Shown here: one piece after another, positions 27,249 to 37,564 of the stretch | Position numbering within the stretch: position 1 is the stretch's first letter | Layout: each line of letters starts with the position of its first letter | NCBI GenBank assembly: GCA_036489335.1 | Contig: DASXFY010000018.1 | Location: 337-64,336 of the forward strand | Source: Steroidobacteraceae bacterium | GTDB taxonomy: Bacteria > Pseudomonadota > Gammaproteobacteria > Steroidobacterales > Steroidobacteraceae | Direction: 5' to 3' | DNA: 64,000 nucleotides | Program-made: the position numbers and the translations under genes | The notes under the pieces: model-generated | The model's input: only the letters and a program-made list of their open reading frames with translations | What the model was told of the DNA's origin: nothing | Database searches by the model: none

Positions 27249-27461
27249 ATTCTTCTTCTTCAGTGTGCCGCAAGCCCCTTCGCCGTTCATTTAACCGCAA
27301 TTTGGCTCGAAACGCACGGCCGCCTGAGCTGCAGCTGGCCTGCCGGTTCTGGGCTAACAGAACTTCAATATTTTCAATTAGTTACCAATATGGCTGGCGC
27401 TTCCGCCGTGTTAGAGTCTGGTGCTGTGCGGAGCGCTCATCTGTCGAAACGGGGAAACGCC

Positions 27462-28201
27462 ATGAGACTGCAATTTGACAATAGGACCGTTGCCGTAAGC
27501 GGTGCGGCGGGGGGGCATCGGAAATGAGATCGCGAAGGGGTTTGCGTCTCTGGGAGCGTCGGTGTTCGCGTGCGACATCCGCAAGGACGGCCTGGCCGGG
27601 TTGGTGACCGACGGGATTGAAATAGAGAGTGTCGATCTCGCGGACAGAGAGGCTGCGGCGGCCTGGATTGCGGGTATCGAGAGCCGCTGCGGCGGCGCGA
27701 TCGACGTGCTCGTCAACAGTGCGGGCGGTGTCGCAGGTCAGGTTGGGCGGCCGCTCGAGGATGTGAATGACGCGGACCGGGACGAGGTCATGGCGATCAA
27801 CCTTGGAGCGGCGTTCGCCCTGAGCCGTGCGTGTGTGCCGGCGATGAAGCGGACGAGGCGAGGGTCCATCGTGAACGTCACCTCAGGCGCGGCGACGAAC
27901 CCTTCATTGACGGGCATACAGTCGTACTGTGCAAGCAAGCATGCGCTATTGGGACTGACCCGGCAGTTGGCGCACGAGCTGGGGCCTCATGGAATCCTCC
28001 CGGACTCATGCTGACCAACGAGGCCACCAGGCGCCAATGGGCGGCCTATGGCGCCGACCGGCAGCGGGCTCTGCTGGAAGGCATCGCGCGCTGCGCAGGC
28101 TGGGCCGCGCCGAGGACGTCGTCAACGCGGTCATGTTTCTGGCATCGGATCTGTCGAGCTTCATCACCGGGCAACATCTGCCGGTGGATGGCGGCAAGTG
28201 A
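27462..28201 (+). pseudogene. SDR-family oxidoreductase with three frame-disrupting lesions
   Basis: MRLQFDNRTVAVSGAAGG is followed by a G7 run (27509-27515) that shifts the frame before IGNEIAKGF. The catalytic YCASK motif is present. A second shift plus a short deletion follows ELGPHGI (about 27997). A third shift near 28085-28092 precedes [36 protein letters not shown]. Confidence 0.85.
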
Positions 28202-28575
28202 TCTTGCGCTCTTAGCCGCCCCAGCGCGCCTGCGGCTGTCTGGAACAATCTGGCTCCATCGATTGGGCTGCGCTTGGCACCGTTATTTGCGCGGCCGCAA
28301 CATCAGGTCTGTCTAAGACATCCAATATTCGCACGGACACCACATTTTTCTAACTCCAGCGACAGGCAATCCAACCATCGTTCGCCGCGTTTGCGGTTCG
28401 CTTCACCGAGTCAGATCGTAAACCGCTAGACGGGCCGGGCGTTCTTTACTATAAATCCGCGTCTCGACAGCGGCGGCCGGCACACATCGCGAGTGCGGAG
28501 TGACTGACCGCGTGCGCGCCCGAATTCCAACTTTCGGGCGCCACGCGGCTCTCTACTACATTTAGGGGAGAAAAT

Positions 28576-30666
28576 GTGAACGCCTATCGGAAATCACCCG
28601 TCCCTGCATCCGTGCGCAACCGCCAATCGCCGCGATCGTGGCGATGGCCAGCGATTTCCGCCGTGGCGGCGCTGTGCGCCTTGTCGCCAGGCAGTCAGGC
28701 TCACGCTGCCAGCGGGCAATACATTGCGAACAGCACACCGGCCTTCGTGACGACAGCCACGAAGGTTGGCGCCGCCACCGCCGCGCAGCGCATCGAGATC
28801 AGCCTTTGGCTCAAGCCGCACAATCGAGCCGCCATGGATGCGCTCGCGCAGCAACTTTACGATCGCAGCTCGCCGAATTACCGCCACTGGCTCAAGCCAG
28901 GTGATATCACCGCGCGCTATGCGCCGACCGCCGCTGAGGCGCAGGTCGTCAGGCAATTCCTGCAAGCCCACCAGCTGACGGTGTCACGAATCGGCCCGAG
29001 CAACTTCTACGTGCGCGCGAGCGGAACGATCGCCCAGGTGGAGCAGGCGTTTGCGGTGCAGATCAACAACTACATTCTCGACGGACGAGCCATGCGGGCA
29101 AATTCCGCCGATCCTTACGTCGAGGGCCCGGCCGCTGCCTTGATTCAAGCGGTCTCGGGACTCGACGATGTCGGGTTCGAGAGCCCGGGGATGCAGCGGC
29201 CGACCATCGTGGCCCAGGGGCAAGCGACTGCCATGCAGCGACTCGCTCCTGCCACCCAGGCACCTACCGTCTCCGGGTTCCAGTCGCAATGTTTCCCGGG
29301 CGCCGTTACCGTGCGCCGGACGACCTCTGGCGGCTATCCCAAGGCGACCTACACCGGCAATGACTACAGCGGCAGCGGGGGTGGCTGTGCCTACGCACCG
29401 GCGGACATTCGTGCCGCCTACAACCTGGATGCGCTCTACGCCGAAGGCTACGACGGGCGGGGGCAGACGATCGTGCTCGTCGAGGATTGTGGCTCACCGA
29501 CCTTGCTCGACGATGCGAATACCTTCTCCGAACGCTTTGGACTTCCACTGCTCACCCCGTCCAAATTCAGCATCATCAGCATGGGCACTTCGGTGTGTGC
29601 CGGATACTACCCGAACATCAATGCGGACGTGGAGTGGGCGCACGCGATCGCACCCGGTGCGGCGCTGGCAGTGGTCTACTCCGTGTCAAATGGCGCTGAG
29701 GATGTCGATGAGGCGATGTTTTATGCGGTGAGCTTCGACCTTGGTGCCGTCATTTCCGATGACAACGCCTTCTCCGAGACCCTGGTACCGGTGACGGAGC
29801 TGCAGAAGGAAAACCTCATTTCGGAGCTCGCCGCGCTCGAAGGCATCTCCGCGAACTATCCCTGTGGATTCAAGGCAAGCGAGCTTTTCTTCGGCTCTCC
29901 CATAACAGCTCCCGCCGACGGTCCGTACGCGACCGCAATCGGTGGCGTCACCCTGGCGCTGGCCGCGGGTGACTCGATAGCGTTCGAGACCGGTTGGGAG
30001 GACCACGTGAGCGAGGTACTTGCGCAAGGCACGATCTACGACCCGGCCTTTTCGCCCGTGATCGGTGGCTTGCTCGTCGGCGGATTGGGCGGACCCAGCG
30101 CGTATTTTGCGAAACCTTCCTTTCAGAGCAGGGCTGTCGCCGGCTCACAGCGCCAACAGCCGGATTTTTCCTGGGTGGCTGATCCCTATACCGGCCTGAT
30201 CGTCGTCGCGACCACGGGCGCGCAGGAGCCACCTCAGTCCTGGTTTGCCTTCGGCGGCACGGACGTGGCGACTTCGATGTTCTCCGCGCTGTGGGCGATA
30301 GCCGATCAGAAAGCCGGCGCCGCCCTCGGTCAGGCCGCGCCTTATCTGTATTCACTGCCTGCGACGGCAGTGACAGATGTGGTGCCCCGGTCGTCCCCGA
30401 ATGATGTGGTTGCGACGGTGCAGGAGACCAGCTCGACGAGCACCAGATTCACTGCGGCCCAGACACTGCTGGTGACGCCGCCCTTCAGTCCATTCTACAG
30501 CGCACTGTGGCAGAACCCGGACGGTGTGGAGAACACCGCGTTGGTGCTCTCCTTCGGCGGAGACTCCGTGATGAAGACGGCGGTCGGTTGGGACGAGGTT
30601 ACGGGAATGGGCACCCCGCGGGATGCCAAGGCATTCGTGGATTGGGTGGGAGGTAACAATCAATGA
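28576..30666 (+). CDS. Sedolisin (S53)-like secreted protein with pro-kumamolisin-type activation domain; catalytic residues substituted (predicted inactive)
   Basis: Signal peptide, a prodomain (SLWLKPHNRAAMDALAQQLYDRSSPNYRHWL), and an S53-like domain. It reads NINAD instead of E-x3-D, CGF instead of SGD, and GGTD instead of GGTS. Confidence 0.85.
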   Translation: MNAYRKSPVPASVRNRQSPRSWRWPAISAVAALCALSPGSQAHAASGQYIANSTPAFVTTATKVGAATAAQRIEISLWLKPHNRAAMDALAQQLYDRSSPNYRHWLKPGDITARYAPTAAEAQVVRQFLQAHQLTVSRIGPSNFYVRASGTIAQVEQAFAVQINNYILDGRAMRANSADPYVEGPAAALIQAVSGLDDVGFESPGMQRPTIVAQGQATAMQRLAPATQAPTVSGFQSQCFPGAVTVRRTTSGGYPKATYTGNDYSGSGGGCAYAPADIRAAYNLDALYAEGYDGRGQTIVLVEDCGSPTLLDDANTFSERFGLPLLTPSKFSIISMGTSVCAGYYPNINADVEWAHAIAPGAALAVVYSVSNGAEDVDEAMFYAVSFDLGAVISDDNAFSETLVPVTELQKENLISELAALEGISANYPCGFKASELFFGSPITAPADGPYATAIGGVTLALAAGDSIAFETGWEDHVSEVLAQGTIYDPAFSPVIGGLLVGGLGGPSAYFAKPSFQSRAVAGSQRQQPDFSWVADPYTGLIVVATTGAQEPPQSWFAFGGTDVATSMFSALWAIADQKAGAALGQAAPYLYSLPATAVTDVVPRSSPNDVVATVQETSSTSTRFTAAQTLLVTPPFSPFYSALWQNPDGVENTALVLSFGGDSVMKTAVGWDEVTGMGTPRDAKAFVDWVGGNNQ

Positions 30667-32864
30667 TCACCATGACAATGACGGCGCGCCGATCGAGGCG
30701 GGCGGTGGCGATGACGGCGGTTCTGATGGCGATGGCCACAGTGGCGCCGGCCGCGTTCGCCGCCGTGCAGATCATTGCGCACAACACTCCGCCATACGTG
30801 TCAGCTAGCGCGTATGTGAAGGCGGAGAATCCCGGGACGGCAATGGATGTTACGGTTTGGTTGCAAACGCGCGATCGTGCCGCAATGAATGCGCTCGCGC
30901 AGGAGCTGTATGACAGCCGTTCGCCGAATTACCACCGCTGGCTCAGCCGGCAGGAGATCGCCGAGCGCTTTGCCCCGAGCGCGCGCGACGTTGCGACCGT
31001 GCAACAATTCCTCGAGTCGCATGGTCTGCAGATCGTGGTGGTGGACAACGAGAACTTCTTCGTGCGTGCACGCGGTACGGTCGGTGACGTGGAGAAGGCA
31101 TTTCAGGTTCAGCTCAATGACTATAGGGTTCGTGGCTCGCTGGTACGAGCGAACGACCAGGACCCTCGCGTCGAAGGGGCGGCGGCGCCGTTGGTGAGAG
31201 CGATATCCGGTCTCGACACGGCTGTATACACTCATCCGGTCGTCATGCGTCCCACTGCCGCTTCCGGCGGATCCAGGGCAGCCCTTCCCTTCGCGGCCAG
31301 CCCGCTCCTCCCTGGAGCAGCCGCAACTGCGCAGTCGAGCTTTTATTCCTCGAATTGCTTCACGATCGGAGCGCAGACGCTCTCGACCAACGGCGATGGC
31401 GAGCTGCCAACGGCGACGTACAGCGGGGAGCAGCTCAATCTGGAGACGCTTACCAGCCCGGGTTGCGCTTACACGCCGAATCCCATCCAGGTCGCGTACC
31501 ATCTCAAGGAACTCTATGCCAAAGGGTACACCGGTCAGGGACAGACGATCGTGATCATCGATTGGTGCGGCTCTTCCACCATCGAGAGCGATGCGAATGC
31601 TTTCGCGAAGAAATTCGGGCTGCCGAAGCTCGATGCCTCCAACTTCCAGATCATCTATACGCCCACCCGCAGTGAATGCGTTCAGGAGGGTCAGGTGGAG
31701 ATCAATCTCGATGTCGAGTGGGCGCATGCGATCGCACCCGGCGCCGATATTGCGCTGGTCGTCCCGCCGTCGGCGTCGCTGCAGGATGTCGATGAGGCGG
31801 AATTCTATGCAGTGAACTATGGGCTCGGAAACTCCGTGTCCGGCAGCTATGGCTCGCCGGAATCCCAGACACCGGCGTCGTATCTGGACACGGAGAACCT
31901 GATCGCAGAGATCGCGGCGCTATCCGGGATCTCGACCAACTTCTCCTCTGGAGACTTCGGCGACTACGTCCCGGCCCTGCCCGCGCCGACGGTGAACGCT
32001 CCCGCGGACTCACCTTGGGCGACTGCGGTGGGCGGCGTCAGTTTGGCGTTGAACGCCAACGACTCGATTGCCTGGCAGGCGGGATGGGGAACCGACATCA
32101 CCATGGTCTACACCTTCGGAACCGTGCTCGATCCCCCCAGCTCAGGCGCGCTCGGCTTCGACTTCGGATCGGGCGGTGGGCCCAGCATGTGCGCCTCGCA
32201 GAACGACAGTGCCGGCAATATCGTATGCCTGGGCGGATTCCCGAAGCCGGCGTTTCAGAGCAAGTTGCCGGGGAAGGTGCGGCTCGTTCCGGATGTCTCC
32301 TGGCTCGCGGATCCCTTCACCGGCGTGGCCATCGCCATCTCCCTTCCCGAGCAGGAGCCGGCACAGGTCTGGGAAGTGGTGGGTGGCACGAGCCTCGCGT
32401 GTCCCATGTTCTCTGCGCTATGGGCGATTGCCAATCAGGCCGCGGGCGCGCCGCTGGGGCAGGCGGCTCAATACCTCTATTCGATGCCCGCAGCCACCTT
32501 GACCGACGTGGTTCCGGTCGCCAGTGCGCACAACGTCGCCGCTATCGTCGAGGACGCGAGCGGCACGAAGCCCTATACGACGGCACAGATCTTCGGAAGC
32601 CAGGCGCCGCGCACGTTCGTGAGCGCAAGCGCCAGTTTCCTCAGCAACAATGGCGCGAATTCGCCCTTTTCATCGGCGACGGACGTAATTTCGTTCGGCA
32701 CCGATTGCGCAACGGTTCCTGCAAGTGACGGCTTTGGAACACCCTGCACGCGCGCAACCGCGTTGCACACGGCGCCGGGCTGGGATGACGTAACGGGCAT
32801 CGGTACGCCAAATGCGGAGGCCTTCGTGGATCATTTCATCCCGGGCGCGGCTGACAACCGATGA
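30663..32864 (+). CDS. Sedolisin (S53) family secreted serine-carboxyl peptidase with activation domain
   Basis: Paralog of the upstream ORF. It retains VEINLDVEW (Glu/Asp), FSSGDFG (oxyanion Asp) and VGGTSLACP (Ser nucleophile). ATGA overlap with the upstream stop. Confidence 0.88.
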   Translation: MITMTMTARRSRRAVAMTAVLMAMATVAPAAFAAVQIIAHNTPPYVSASAYVKAENPGTAMDVTVWLQTRDRAAMNALAQELYDSRSPNYHRWLSRQEIAERFAPSARDVATVQQFLESHGLQIVVVDNENFFVRARGTVGDVEKAFQVQLNDYRVRGSLVRANDQDPRVEGAAAPLVRAISGLDTAVYTHPVVMRPTAASGGSRAALPFAASPLLPGAAATAQSSFYSSNCFTIGAQTLSTNGDGELPTATYSGEQLNLETLTSPGCAYTPNPIQVAYHLKELYAKGYTGQGQTIVIIDWCGSSTIESDANAFAKKFGLPKLDASNFQIIYTPTRSECVQEGQVEINLDVEWAHAIAPGADIALVVPPSASLQDVDEAEFYAVNYGLGNSVSGSYGSPESQTPASYLDTENLIAEIAALSGISTNFSSGDFGDYVPALPAPTVNAPADSPWATAVGGVSLALNANDSIAWQAGWGTDITMVYTFGTVLDPPSSGALGFDFGSGGGPSMCASQNDSAGNIVCLGGFPKPAFQSKLPGKVRLVPDVSWLADPFTGVAIAISLPEQEPAQVWEVVGGTSLACPMFSALWAIANQAAGAPLGQAAQYLYSMPAATLTDVVPVASAHNVAAIVEDASGTKPYTTAQIFGSQAPRTFVSASASFLSNNGANSPFSSATDVISFGTDCATVPASDGFGTPCTRATALHTAPGWDDVTGIGTPNAEAFVDHFIPGAADNR

Positions 32865-34949
32865 CTATCTCACCTGCATGTAATCGTCGATCCAGTTGAT
32901 CCACCGCCGAAAGACGTCAATGCTCCGGACGGGGTCTCCGGGGAAATGGCCCGGGACCGGATAGGCGAAGAACTTGACGGTAACGCCGTTGTCCTTCAGC
33001 GCGTGGTACATCAGATACGACTGCGTGATGGGCACGCGCTCATCGGCTGTATCGGCCAGGATGAGCGTCGGGGTTTTCACCTGGCTCGCATAGGTGATGG
33101 GCGACTGCGCGACGTAAGCCGCCATCAGGTTCCTGGTCCAGGGTGAGCCGCCGAAACTCCACCGCTCCGTCACGTTGAAGTCCGAGAGCGCGTAAGCGTG
33201 TACGAGGTCGTTGACCGCGGCGCCGGAAACCGCGGCCTTCCAGAACTGGAAGTGGCCGATCAGCCACGAAGTCATGTAGCCGCCGTAGGACCAGCCGGAG
33301 ACGGCGATACGGGAAGTGTCGATGAAACCGCGGCGCTCGAGCGCCTGAAGACCCGACATGACATCGCGCCCCGGGCCGTCCCCGGCATCGTTGTAGATCG
33401 CGCGCTGGTAGGCGTTACCGAGGTTATCGCTGCCGCGGTAATTCGGCGAGAAGACCACATAGCCGCGTCCCGCGAGGAGCTGCGGCAGCGCATCGAAGTC
33501 CTCCGTCGAGGCGGCCTGCGGACCTCCATGGATATAAAGCACCAGGGGGTACTCGCGTCCTATCTCGAATCCCGGTGGATACACCACGACGCCATCTTCG
33601 GCGAACCCATCGGGACCGGCCCACTTGAGCGTCTCAACGCGACCGAGCTGCCGCGATGCGACCGCATCATTGAAACTCGTCAGGCGCCGAAGGGCGCCGT
33701 CGAGGCTCGGCATGTAATAGAGCTCGTCCGGATGAGTCGGTGTGCTGCCGACCAAGGCCAGGGCGCCCTCCTTCCCCAGGGAGAGGTCGATCCAGAACAG
33801 CCAGTCGGGCTCGACATCGCCCAGATTGAGCTTGCGTGCGGGCCCCTTCAGGGGTTGTACCCATAGACCGACGTGCGTTCCATCGTGTGCCCCAACCAAC
33901 AGCGACTGCCCGTCCGGCATCCAGAAAACGCGCACGATGTCCCGATCGAGCTCACGTGTGACATCGGCTCCATCTCCGCCGGCCACGGGCGTTACCAGGA
34001 GATCGGCCTCGTTGTTGAAATCACCATCGCGTGAGTAGGTGTAGGCGATCTGGGAGCCGTCCGGGGAATAGAGCGGGAAGCCCTCCAGCAGGGGATGACT
34101 CGTCAGCTTGCGAATTCCTCCGGTAGCGACATTCACTATCGCAACCACGGTCTGATCCGAATCCCCATAGGCCGGGGTTCTCTGTTGCACGATCGCGATC
34201 GACCGCCCGTCGGGCGACCAGGAGAGGGGGGAGGATGGCGCGCTCGGTGGCGCTGACCGCGGCAGCGTCCAGCCTCCGGAAGTGATGCGCCGCGGCGGGC
34301 CGCCGTTGGCGGGCACGAGCCAGAGATGTGCGGGCAGGGCGGCCTCGGCAGTGAGATAGCTGTTGTCGCCCACCTCGAATGCATCCTCGTGCTGATCGAT
34401 CTCCTTTTGCGAGGGGTTGTCGTCAGCCATCGTGAAGGCGATCTGCCGCCCATCCGGGCTCCACGCGATCTGTTCGACATCGTGCGCGGAGCCGGTGATC
34501 CGATGAGCCTCGCCGCCATTCATCGGCAACACGTAGATCTGCTCCGAGGGCTGCTTCCAGGGAGTCGAAGACTTCGCGCCCGCTGTTTCCGCGGGGTCGG
34601 GAGAGCCGTCTTCTCCGTCTGCCGATGGCTGCGCGAGGGCGAGAAAAGCGAGGCGGTCGCCTGTGGGAGACCAGCGAGGCGAGAATACGTCCTTTCGCTC
34701 GTAAGTGAGGACCCGCTGCGCTCCGGAGGTAACGTCGATCAGGACGATGGAGGAGTCATAATCATCCTGGGCCAGATTCGGGCGCGAAACGACCAGGGTA
34801 ATCGACCTGCCGTCGGGTGAGAGCTCGGGGTCGGAGACGTGGACGATCTCGGCGACATCCCGGAGCAGCAATCGATTGGATTGTGCGTGGGCGAGCAATG
34901 GAATGAGGGCGGCGGCGATCAGTGCGACGGTCGTCGATGCGCGCGGCAT
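32865..34949 (-). CDS. S9-family serine peptidase (beta-propeller + prolyl oligopeptidase/acylaminoacyl-peptidase catalytic domain)
   Basis: Signal peptide MPRASTTVALIAAALIPLLAHA, with the ATG at 34949 preceded by GAGG. TolB-like propeller repeats. Nucleophile motif GWSYGGYM. The stop abuts the sedolisin stop with no gap. Confidence 0.9.
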   Translation of the reverse strand: MPRASTTVALIAAALIPLLAHAQSNRLLLRDVAEIVHVSDPELSPDGRSITLVVSRPNLAQDDYDSSIVLIDVTSGAQRVLTYERKDVFSPRWSPTGDRLAFLALAQPSADGEDGSPDPAETAGAKSSTPWKQPSEQIYVLPMNGGEAHRITGSAHDVEQIAWSPDGRQIAFTMADDNPSQKEIDQHEDAFEVGDNSYLTAEAALPAHLWLVPANGGPPRRITSGGWTLPRSAPPSAPSSPLSWSPDGRSIAIVQQRTPAYGDSDQTVVAIVNVATGGIRKLTSHPLLEGFPLYSPDGSQIAYTYSRDGDFNNEADLLVTPVAGGDGADVTRELDRDIVRVFWMPDGQSLLVGAHDGTHVGLWVQPLKGPARKLNLGDVEPDWLFWIDLSLGKEGALALVGSTPTHPDELYYMPSLDGALRRLTSFNDAVASRQLGRVETLKWAGPDGFAEDGVVVYPPGFEIGREYPLVLYIHGGPQAASTEDFDALPQLLAGRGYVVFSPNYRGSDNLGNAYQRAIYNDAGDGPGRDVMSGLQALERRGFIDTSRIAVSGWSYGGYMTSWLIGHFQFWKAAVSGAAVNDLVHAYALSDFNVTERWSFGGSPWTRNLMAAYVAQSPITYASQVKTPTLILADTADERVPITQSYLMYHALKDNGVTVKFFAYPVPGHFPGDPVRSIDVFRRWINWIDDYMQVR

Positions 34950-35010
34950 TCGATACCTCAACAGGGGGATCGGTGTGTTGACTATACAATCAAACGGCGA
35001 TTTCGGTTAC

Positions 35011-36483
35011 TCAATCATTTTTTGCGCCGACGCGACAGGCTGTAGCAACCGAGCGGCGATGGCCGTAGCCCCAATATATGACGAGCCCCACGAGCATCCA
35101 CCCCAGGAATCGAAGCCAGGTATCAAAGGGAAGACTGACCATGAGGTACGCGCAGGCGATTGCCCCAAGCGATGCAACGACTGGCGCGCATGGAACGCTG
35201 AACGGCCGTGGTAGCGCTGGTTGCGAGCGGCGAAGCACGAGCACGCTGACGCAGACCGCCAGAAAGGCGAACAGCGTCCCGATCGAAATGAGCTCACTGA
35301 GGAGCTCTATGGGCAGGAGCGCGCCCAGGATTGCGGTGGCGAGCGCCGCTATGGCGATGCCGACCGATGGTACGGCTGTCGCCGGATGCACCCTGCCGAT
35401 AGACATGGGCAAGAGACCATCCCGGGCCATGGAATGGAAGATGCGGCTGAGTGCGAAAAGGAGCACCAGCATGACCGACGTCAGGCCGATCACGGCGCCG
35501 ATACCTACGAGCGGGCGAAGGAACGAGAGCGCCGGACCGGCGAACTGCAGTGCGGCGATCAGGGGGTCCGCGACACCGAGTGCCCGATAAGGCGAAAGGC
35601 CTGTCAGTACAAACGCCACGGCGATGTAGAGCACCGTGCACGCGACAAGAGATCCGAGGAGGCCCAAGGGAGTGTCTCGGGAAGGATTGCGCGCCTCCCT
35701 TGCGGCGGTGGAGACGCAATCGAAGCCGAGGAACGAGAAGAATATCACCCCCGCGGCGCGCAGGATTCCGCTCCAGCCAAAGTGCCCCAAGGACCCGAGG
35801 TTTGGCGGGATGAACGGCGTCCAGTTGTCAGGTCGTACGTAGAAGGCGCCGAATCCTATGAACGCCACGAGCACTGCAAGTTTGATCGCTACGATTACGT
35901 TGTTGACCGTGGCGGAAGCCCGGGACCCCCTCAGCACGATGGCCCCGATCACCAGCGCCATGAGGGTGGCCGGCAGATTGACGATGGCGCCGCTCAGGTG
36001 CAGATGGCGCGACGCATCGAGCGTGACCGGCGCGCTCAGGAAAATGCGCGGTGCATCGATGCTCGCCATTTTCAGCACCGCCACCAGGTAGGCCGACCAG
36101 CTGACGCTGATCGTGGCCGCGGCGAACAGAAATTCGCACACCAGGCTCCAGCCGACGACCCATGCCGGCAATTCCCCGAGGGCGATATAGGCGTAGCTGT
36201 AAGCGCCACCCGAGACCGGGATCATGGCGGCGAGCTCGGCATAACAGAGCGCCGGGCACAGACAGACGGCTGCGGCGATGATGAACGAGAGCACGATCGC
36301 CGGGCCTGCATACTCGGCGGCGGCAGTACCCGTGACGGCAAAGATGCCTGCCCCGACGATTGCGCCAACCCCGAATGCCGCGAGACTCGTGGCGCCGAGG
36401 GATCTATGCAGGGAGCCCGGGGAGTCCGCCTGTAGAGACTCTCCCCGCACATCCTCGACAGCGAGCTTCGACCAGATGCCCAT
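35011..36483 (-). CDS. APC-superfamily amino-acid permease
   Basis: I chose the ATG at 36483 (MGIWSKLAVEDVRGESLQADSPGSLHRSLGATSLAAFGVGAIVGAGIF...). About 12-14 TM segments. The track ORF extends spuriously to 36753. Confidence 0.9.
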   Translation of the reverse strand: MGIWSKLAVEDVRGESLQADSPGSLHRSLGATSLAAFGVGAIVGAGIFAVTGTAAAEYAGPAIVLSFIIAAAVCLCPALCYAELAAMIPVSGGAYSYAYIALGELPAWVVGWSLVCEFLFAAATISVSWSAYLVAVLKMASIDAPRIFLSAPVTLDASRHLHLSGAIVNLPATLMALVIGAIVLRGSRASATVNNVIVAIKLAVLVAFIGFGAFYVRPDNWTPFIPPNLGSLGHFGWSGILRAAGVIFFSFLGFDCVSTAAREARNPSRDTPLGLLGSLVACTVLYIAVAFVLTGLSPYRALGVADPLIAALQFAGPALSFLRPLVGIGAVIGLTSVMLVLLFALSRIFHSMARDGLLPMSIGRVHPATAVPSVGIAIAALATAILGALLPIELLSELISIGTLFAFLAVCVSVLVLRRSQPALPRPFSVPCAPVVASLGAIACAYLMVSLPFDTWLRFLGWMLVGLVIYWGYGHRRSVATACRVGAKND

Positions 36484-36586
36484 GCGTGTCCCGGGAGCGG
36501 ATGCCCGATGAAGGGATTCTGAAAATGCCGAAATCGCTATAGAGTATCTCAAAAGACACTCTGGCTTGAGCTTCGAGGCGGCCGTG

Positions 36587-37564
36587 ATGACCAACCCTTC
36601 CCTTTTGCCTGTGCAGCCCATACGACTCGACGCGATCAGGGAGGCTCGTGCGCGGATTGCGTCCACGGTGACGCGGACGCCGATATTTCGCCTCGAGCTC
36701 GGCGCCGGTTTTCCGGATATCCGGCTGAAGCTCGAGAATCTGCAACCGATCAATTCCTACAAGCTGCGTGGCGCGGTGAACGCGGTTTCCGTGCTTGCGG
36801 AAAGCGCCCGCCAGCGGGGCGTTTGGACGATCAGCGCCGGCAATGCCGGCCAGGGAGTCGCGTATGCGGCGCGCAAGGCTGGCGTGCCCTGCACGGTCGT
36901 GGCCATAGAGACGGCGCCGGCGTCGAAACTGGAGCGCATGAAGGCTCTGGGAGCGACGCTGATTACGGTCCCCTATCAGGTCGCCTGGAAGGCGCTCGAG
37001 GAGCGTTCGTATCCGGGTATCTCGGGCACTTTCATCCACCCGTTCGACGATGACGACTTCATCACCGGACATGCGACCATGGGACTCGAGATACTGGAAG
37101 ACGTGCCGGATGTGCGTGCGCTCATTGCGGCCATCGGCGGCGGCGGTTTGGTGACGGGGGTGGGAAGCGCTCTGAAGGCCTTGAAGCCGGACGTCAAAGT
37201 GTGGGGAGCGGAGCCCGAGACCGCTGCACCTCTGGCGCGCTCGCTCGAGCTGCAATCGGCGCAGGTATTCAAGGAGTGGCAGCCTTCGTTCGTCGATGGC
37301 GCCGGAGGGATGAGCGTGTTTCCCCGCATGTGGGAGCGGATGCGCACCATCGTGGATGGGTCGATCGTCGTCAGCCTGGAGGAAACCCGGCGAGCGTTAC
37401 GCATGCTGGCGGATCGGCCGCGGGTCATCGCGGAGGGCGCCGGGGCCCTGTCGCTCGCCGCGGCGCTGACCGGCCGCGCCGGACCCGGCCCGATCGTTGC
37501 AGTCGTCTCCGGCGGGAATATCGATCTCAAGAAGCTCTGCGAGATCCTTGCCGCGACGGAGTGA
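36587..37564 (+). CDS. PLP-dependent threonine/serine dehydratase-family enzyme
   Basis: LENLQPINSYKLRGA (PLP-lysine motif) and the glycine loop AAIGGGGLVTGV. The start is ATG 36587 or TTG 36566. Confidence 0.88.
   Translation: MTNPSLLPVQPIRLDAIREARARIASTVTRTPIFRLELGAGFPDIRLKLENLQPINSYKLRGAVNAVSVLAESARQRGVWTISAGNAGQGVAYAARKAGVPCTVVAIETAPASKLERMKALGATLITVPYQVAWKALEERSYPGISGTFIHPFDDDDFITGHATMGLEILEDVPDVRALIAAIGGGGLVTGVGSALKALKPDVKVWGAEPETAAPLARSLELQSAQVFKEWQPSFVDGAGGMSVFPRMWERMRTIVDGSIVVSLEETRRALRMLADRPRVIAEGAGALSLAAALTGRAGPGPIVAVVSGGNIDLKKLCEILAATE

Follow-up and report, generated by a model that had tools for sequence, protein, structure and literature searches.

Two consecutive genes, here called A and B, lie on the forward strand of the stretch of DNA analysed in this work (the window), which covers 64,000 nucleotides (nt) of contig DASXFY010000018.1 (assembly GCA_036489335.1, positions 337 to 64,336) from a Steroidobacteraceae bacterium. 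Both encode proteins related to kumamolisin and sedolisin (MEROPS family S53, clan SB); the upstream protein has lost three of the four catalytic residues of this family, and its gene is followed, through a stop/start overlap, by the gene of a protein that keeps all four. A preliminary description read from the letters alone had placed the two open reading frames (ORFs), their overlap and their catalytic codons. The coordinates, strand and lengths of both ORFs were confirmed, reading the junction (GGGAGGTAACAATCAATGATC) bore out the ATGA overlap, and every residue and codon position proved arithmetically correct when counted from the ORF starts (Table 1). Both proteins are predicted to be secreted, on the basis of N-terminal hydrophobic and AxA signals judged by eye; residues 1–44 of A are modelled by AlphaFold2 (AF2) with a predicted local distance difference test score (pLDDT) <50.

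A and B align over their whole length (43% identity over 720 columns, E=3e-168 with BLASTP), and the colinear paralogy first proposed from a comparison by eye thus holds. Each protein carries a pro-kumamolisin-type activation domain (PF09286, Pro-kuma_activ), matched with E-values of 4.8e-25 for A and 5.6e-28 for B, with scores that both exceed the gathering score. It is the sole Pfam match in A and B, the S8/S53 catalytic-domain model recognising neither, and NCBIfam gave no match for either protein. The S53-like catalytic domain that had been assigned to both behind the activation domain was supported by comparison with pro-kumamolisin (1t1e), which is the best PDB match by sequence for A as well as for B. 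The AF2 models (pLDDT 85.1 for A and 80.6 for B, predicted template modelling score 0.87 for each) were superposed on 1t1e with Foldseek over prodomain and catalytic domain, with E=2.9e-34 and a template modelling (TM) score of 0.83 for A, and E=9.2e-36 and a TM score of 0.84 for B. For both models 1t1e ranked top, followed by TPP1 precursors, kumamolisin-As and sedolisin, and the S8 subtilisins appeared only after these. Like kumamolisin and sedolisin, A and B combine the Pro-kuma_activ prodomain with a subtilisin-like catalytic domain and conserve the C-terminal GWDxVTGxGxP motif. They differ from pro-kumamolisin in being ~150–180 residues longer, owing to a long linker region that contains Cys and to two insertions (~475–530 and ~606–668 in A). 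The cysteines C239, C271, C305 and C341 of A (window 29290–29598) and their equivalents in B are invariant across 82 homologues, both those with a degenerate catalytic set (dead copies) and those with a complete one (live copies), which suggests two conserved disulfides in this long sedolisin subfamily.

Active S53 peptidases are defined by the EXXXD and GXSXXXP motifs, a Glu/Asp/Ser triad and an oxyanion Asp (PMC7804941, PMC6411800). Alignments to 1t1e and with MAFFT showed that B keeps this full Glu/Asp/Asp/Ser set, with both motifs and the oxyanion Asp (D431) in place, as had been proposed, and B is predicted to be a canonical acid serine-carboxyl endopeptidase. The equivalence of the residues in A was assessed in four ways, by HMMER alignment to 1t1e, by MAFFT alignments of 122 and 219 sequences, by the BLASTP alignment of A with B and on the AF2 models. 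All four agree on the loss of three catalytic residues, and no alignment or model places an equivalent of the Glu, the oxyanion Asp or the Ser in A. In the HMMER alignment, N347-I-N-A-D351 of A falls on E78-V-E-L-D82 of kumamolisin, and GGTD563 on GGTA278, the crystal form being the S278A mutant. At the oxyanion position the aligners differ by up to two residues (P430 or F432), a disagreement that is immaterial because NYPCGFKAS lacks acidic residues whatever the register. Without the Ser/Glu/Asp triad, A is therefore an S53 homologue and not an S53 peptidase. Judging from its model, it appears to be a correctly folded sedolisin homologue devoid of general base, oxyanion carboxylate and nucleophile.

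Table 1. Features of the A–B gene pair, with positions in the window.
Feature	Position	Strand	Description
Shine-Dalgarno-like AGGGGAG	28565..28571	+	5 nt upstream of the GTG start of A; read from sequence
ORF A	28576..30666	+	putative secreted pseudo-sedolisin, 696 amino acids (aa), GTG start
A signal peptide (Sec, predicted)	28576..28707	+	aa 1-44, cleavage between ...SQAHA and ASGQ; hydrophobic core and AxA motif, by eye
A pro-kumamolisin-type activation domain	28756..29169	+	aa 61-198; Pfam PF09286
A Ser203	29182..29184	+	in the prodomain/catalytic-domain linker, at the near-invariant His of live copies
A Asn347	29614..29616	+	at the catalytic Glu position (kumamolisin Glu78)
A Asp351	29626..29628	+	retained equivalent of kumamolisin Asp82, ADVEW motif
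A Phe432	29869..29871	+	at or near the oxyanion Asp164 position
A Asp563	30262..30264	+	at the Ser nucleophile position (kumamolisin Ser278), in GGTDVATS
Shine-Dalgarno GGGAGG of B	30649..30654	+	within the last codons of A, 8 nt upstream of ATG 30663
ATGA stop/start overlap of A and B	30663..30666	+	TGA of A at 30664-30666, ATG of B at 30663
ORF B	30663..32864	+	canonical-looking, putative secreted sedolisin, 733 aa, ATG start
B His191	31233..31235	+	in the linker, between YTH and PVV
B ExxxD motif	31698..31712	+	Glu346 (31698-31700) and Asp350 (31710-31712); kumamolisin Glu78/Asp82
B oxyanion Asp431	31953..31955	+	in SSGDFG; kumamolisin Asp164
B nucleophile Ser577	32391..32393	+	in GGTSLACP; kumamolisin Ser278

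A search of 1.84 billion representatives returned 309 relatives of the query at E<=1e-30. We describe homologues by a four-letter signature giving the residues at the Glu, Asp, oxyanion Asp and Ser positions (EDDS in canonical enzymes). Among the best 120 homologues of A, 47 are non-canonical and 73 are canonical EDDS; neither the Glu nor the Ser is present in any of the 34 closest (54–100% identity), and further dead-looking groups, with the signatures NDDE, IDDE, QEEG and VDDE, are interspersed with canonical ones. The dead relatives amount to 55 distinct sequences, down to ~50% identity to A, in Proteobacteria and Acidobacteriota, and A is thus not a lineage-specific gene. Ratios of non-synonymous to synonymous substitution (dN/dS), computed by the Nei-Gojobori method on orthologous pairs with unsaturated dS, range from 0.16 to 0.26 for the dead gene and from 0.14 to 0.24 for its live neighbour in those genomes (A versus B: 0.222 versus 0.206 between the window and L001, 0.201 versus 0.185 between L001 and L012, 0.162 versus 0.172 between L006 and L015). 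Purifying selection on A equals that on B.

These values bear directly on the reading of A as a functionless remnant of a tandem duplication, heading for loss, which would account for the disappearance of three of the four catalytic residues and for the frameshifts found in both genes of one orthologous pair (L083). However, the ORF of A is intact over its 696 residues, it evolves under the same constraint as its live partner, its dead relatives spread over two phyla, and its prodomain and C-terminus are conserved as in B; the frameshifts of L083, moreover, hit both genes in a genome assembled from long reads and are possible assembly errors. We regard this explanation as effectively refuted. 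The decaying-gene scenario, one of the two refuting outcomes named in the preliminary description, is rejected on dN/dS and conservation; the other, an alignment that gives A its missing catalytic residues, did not arise either.

A comparison of the 55 dead with 163 live sequences in a MAFFT alignment indicated where constraint had been lost. The positions of Glu78, Asp164, Ser278 and the Pro of GTSxxxP are invariant in live copies and relaxed in dead ones. Also relaxed are the positions aligned with kumamolisin Ile127/Ser128, on the substrate strand (Gly394/Ser395 in live copies), the residue beside the Glu32 equivalent, and a His in the linker between prodomain and catalytic domain. This linker His is present in 99% of the live sequences and invariant (Y-x-H-P) in all 11 live partners; the dead copies have Ser (22), His (20), Asn (4) or other residues, the His being kept in acidobacterial dead copies and replaced in the subclade of A (F-E/Q-S-P-G). 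The autoprocessing site of pro-kumamolisin is His-Phe, and by analogy His191 of B is probably the P1 residue of autocleavage.

Mean pairwise identities among dead and among live copies of the same 11 genomes delimit the relaxed regions further. In the core segment from Glu78 to Asp164 the dead copies share 64.8% identity versus 80.9% for the live ones, and in the Ser segment 71.8% versus 81.3%; the prodomain (66.7% versus 63.8%) and the C-terminal region (69% versus 63%) show no such deficit. The catalytic core, the substrate strand and the linker His are the only parts that show relaxation, and the prodomain of A is as conserved as that of B. The decay looks stepwise, with Glu and Ser lost in all dead copies and the oxyanion Asp and linker His lost later, on the proteobacterial branch.

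The same residues allow one to weigh whether A could still be a hydrolase with a non-canonical or migrated site, made for example of the Asp82 equivalent and an acidic residue at the former Ser. The Asp82 equivalent is indeed kept in nearly all dead copies; the former Ser position, which across the dead clade is D, G, E, P or T, is Asp in A and Glu in 20 of the 55 dead copies, and acidobacterial subclades keep Asp or Glu at the oxyanion position too (GDEE, NDDE, IDDE). In the subclade of A, however, the former active-site positions vary freely (D, G, P or T for the Ser and F, I, V, A or T for the oxyanion residue, in a protein with a dN/dS of ~0.2), which makes a re-invented catalytic site unlikely there. 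The general base is replaced by N, S, G, I, Q, D or V, relaxation extends to the residues of the substrate strand, and the ~10 residues that are common to dead copies and rare in live ones include none that is acidic or nucleophilic; one of them, Pro346, directly precedes the lost Glu. We consider that a surviving hydrolytic activity of A is very improbable.

The association of the dead gene with a live one is conserved as well. At all 14 loci with readable surroundings, in Proteobacteria and Acidobacteriota, the next gene after the dead one, on the same strand, is a live gene of B type that encodes an EDDS protein of 710–738 aa (the window, L001, L002, L003, L004/5, L006, L007/8, L012–L016, L083 and L092, where L004/5 and L007/8 are each two copies of one locus). 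The survey of relatives suggested in the preliminary description thus returned the tandem at every dead-copy locus examined, in two phyla. Scored by ORF criteria, an S53 gene follows 13 of 14 dead copies (14 of 14 with the frameshifted L083) and only 2 of 16 live A-like relatives, a difference with a Fisher p of 2e-5, uncorrected for phylogeny. The genes on either side of the pair change with every lineage and locus examined, and a conserved synteny reaching past the pair was rejected on this ground.

The junction itself is kept in many of these pairs. The ATGA overlap occurs in all seven proteobacterial pairs (once with CCA and not CAA as the last codon) and in L092, and the GGGAGG Shine-Dalgarno of B is retained in orthologous junctions. 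A second in-frame ATG, 3–7 codons downstream, is conserved across the pairs with an ATGA junction, so that B may start at either ATG; the gap stays within 17 nt throughout. In the window the alternative starts are at 30672 and 30678 (3 and 5 codons downstream of ATG 30663), and initiation there would leave a stop-to-start distance <=12 nt that should still permit coupling. Given this organization, co-transcription of the pairs is likely in all lineages.

Several loci depart from the simple arrangement. L014 (1544–8286) is a triple tandem of a dead GDAP gene, a dead SDID gene and a live EDDS gene, in which the first two genes are 318 nt apart and the last two overlap by ATGA. L002 and L003 lie on one contig of 79,036 bp (Ga0643770_0000086), as two dead and live pairs with the signatures NDFG and NDVT for the dead genes, in divergent orientation and ~10 kb apart. 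At L083 (4001–8085), in the metagenome-assembled genome (MAG) MFD04434.bin.3.45, both genes of the orthologous pair are frameshifted, through either joint pseudogenisation or long-read assembly errors.

In the trees, A-type (upstream) and B-type (downstream) proteins form separate superclades, and the duplication behind A and B is old. Dead copies of A type group with a clade of live A-like proteins from mostly solo genes, which includes the upstream genes of two live and live tandems from Acidobacteriota, L028 (3713–8322) and L067 (3755–8340). In both of these an A-type gene with a full EDDS set stands with a B-type gene, so that the A-type/B-type tandem may predate the inactivation, and L028 and L067 may represent the state of the pair before it. 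Unlinked live A-like and B-like genes occur in some acidobacterial genomes (e.g. L018 and L053, on one contig). Dead copies formed one clade in the full-data neighbour-joining trees and have in common the ~10 residues, rare in live proteins, mentioned above; however, the bootstrap for monophyly is only 23/100, and a smaller tree split this clade, so that the A lineage may have undergone one or several losses. A clear case of independent origin is L095 (2378–7151): the order is reversed, a live EDDS sedolisin of 841 aa being followed after 97 nt by a dead GEDQ copy, and the two neighbours are sisters with a bootstrap of 100/100.

Sedolisins, such as kumamolisin (used in gluten degradation) or human TPP1, are regarded as acid proteases that activate themselves and need no other protein. 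With a conserved non-catalytic paralogue as constant companion of a live enzyme, the S53 family would gain a regulatory or accessory layer. Among proteases of clan SB, the closest parallel is found in Clostridioides difficile, where the pseudoproteases CspA and CspC, whose prodomains remain uncleaved, regulate the active CspB (family S8; PMC7200643). As in the A–B pair, an active protease of subtilase fold is encoded beside conserved paralogues that lack catalytic-triad residues. The two systems differ in that the Csp proteins belong to S8, with an Asp/His/Ser triad, and not to S53; they serve signalling in spore germination rather than the secreted acid proteolysis expected here; CspA is fused to CspB, whereas A and B are separate genes; and their interaction and regulation have been demonstrated experimentally, whereas those of A and B are proposed from sequence. 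Dead paralogues that act through a live one have also been reported for c-FLIP and caspase-8, for AdoMetDC and its prozyme in Trypanosoma brucei and for the metacaspase MCA4 (PMC5201418, PMC3220528, PMC10211241). Unlike A and B, these pairs are eukaryotic and intracellular, have other folds, and have been demonstrated to heterodimerise.

The literature searched, which left most subscription journals and MEROPS uncovered, made no mention of a pseudoenzyme, an inactive paralogue or a heteromer in family S53. This agrees with the remark in the preliminary description, which was aware of no such partner for bacterial S53 peptidases; the S8 Csp system was the sole analogue found. The kind of arrangement, a pseudoprotease with its live paralogue, is known already; what appears to be new is its occurrence in family S53, in putatively secreted proteins and in two phyla. 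It would carry the pseudoprotease concept beyond the Csp proteins of S8, into S53 and into secreted enzymes of nutrient acquisition in abundant soil bacteria.

Overall, we lean towards the view that A is a zymogen-like, non-catalytic pseudo-sedolisin that acts together with the probably co-expressed live B, a partnership suggested by the linkage of the two genes. In this proposal A and B would be transcribed together and, in this lineage, translationally coupled. B would cleave itself at the conserved His of the linker and degrade protein outside the cell. A would fold with the help of its own prodomain, would be unable to act as a Ser/Glu/Asp protease and probably unable to remove this prodomain. 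Since the prodomain would be needed for folding and could not be removed by A, the protein would persist in a zymogen-like form, or else be trimmed in trans by B. The retention of the prodomain is suggested by the loss of the nucleophile and linker His in a protein whose prodomain is conserved like that of B. The likeliest mode of action would be that of a stoichiometric partner, by which B is regulated, stabilised or targeted, as CspA and CspC act on CspB. Substrate binding by A through a canonical cleft is disfavoured because the relaxed constraint lies exactly in this cleft.

A more specific form of the proposal, which we put forward tentatively, is that A is a permanent zymogen-like regulatory subunit of a defined heteromer and gates the maturation or activity of B, with pH or a ligand as a possible trigger. 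If true, this would be the first pseudoenzyme-controlled heteromeric S53 protease, a secreted counterpart of the CspC/CspA–CspB signalling logic that soil Acidobacteriota and Steroidobacteraceae-like Proteobacteria have conserved.

Several observations weigh against a partnership. B-type enzymes are mostly solo, with an S53 gene upstream in only 15 of 68 cases, and tblastn detected no upstream remnants next to solo B-type genes; B-type activity does not, then, generally need A. Partnered and solo B-like proteins are distinguished by only two weak positions, and this comparison of residues gives no sign that B has adapted to a partner. The acidobacterial pairs are separated by spacers of 97–125 nt with their own GGAGG Shine-Dalgarno, so that tight translational coupling is lineage-specific: the coupling first proposed from the overlap stands for the proteobacterial pairs and L092 and does not extend to the acidobacterial ones. 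A dead-looking relative with the signature EDNG, which has Asn for the oxyanion Asp and Gly for the Ser, is a solo gene located beside polysaccharide-export genes (L094:4596–6644), and not all inactive S53 homologues are therefore paired. Finally, the window itself comes from a metagenome-assembled genome.

Some of these points would fit equally an A that is secreted and non-catalytic but has a job of its own, such as binding peptides or polymers, serving as a decoy or acting as a surface adhesin, and that is co-regulated with B without forming a complex. The dead status of A and the selection on it are explained as well by such a role, partner-specific residues are lacking in the partnered B proteins, most B-type enzymes act on their own, and the adjoining genes, which encode a secreted-looking S9 peptidase and an amino-acid permease, suggest a nutritional neighbourhood rather than a dedicated complex. 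On the other hand, the strict 14/14 linkage, held down to ~50% identity and across phyla while the flanks change, exceeds what is usual for mere co-regulation; the ATGA coupling favours a fixed stoichiometry, and ligand binding through the cleft is unlikely where constraint has been relaxed exactly at the canonical substrate cleft. We thus rate a stand-alone function of A as rather doubtful, though the next likeliest reading, and retain as our preferred interpretation that A works together with B.

Whatever the function of A, non-canonical signatures are found in 17 of the 94 full-length subfamily representatives examined (~18%), L094 among them. Since annotation pipelines name such genes 'S53 family peptidase' or 'subtilase family serine protease', the number of extracellular peptidases counted in Acidobacteriota and related MAGs is too high.

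Some minor features of the locus may be added. The database copy of A (P0001), from a Steroidobacteraceae MAG, is an NCBI protein of 661 aa that begins 35 codons past the GTG used here (window 28576–28680), and this start would strip most of the signal peptide of A; the alignment with homologues of 696 aa begins at residue 1 and favours the GTG start over the NCBI call. A scan for promoters and terminators around the pair gave nothing exceeding the shuffled expectation. Upstream of A, a short-chain dehydrogenase gene (27400–28320, forward strand) is split across three reading frames, with its N-terminal MRLQFDNRTVAVSGAAGG in one frame, its core (PF00106, E=1.7e-36) in a second and a typical C-terminus in a third; it is either a pseudogene or the product of assembly indel errors. 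Downstream, a secreted-looking protein of the S9 prolyl-oligopeptidase family (PD40 propeller and Peptidase_S9) is encoded on the reverse strand (32865–34961); its gene, seen only in this window among the loci examined, converges on B with 0 nt between the stop codons. The next gene after it, also on the reverse strand (35011–36753), encodes an amino-acid permease, and amino-acid permeases also adjoin related S53 genes in L009–L011 and L092.

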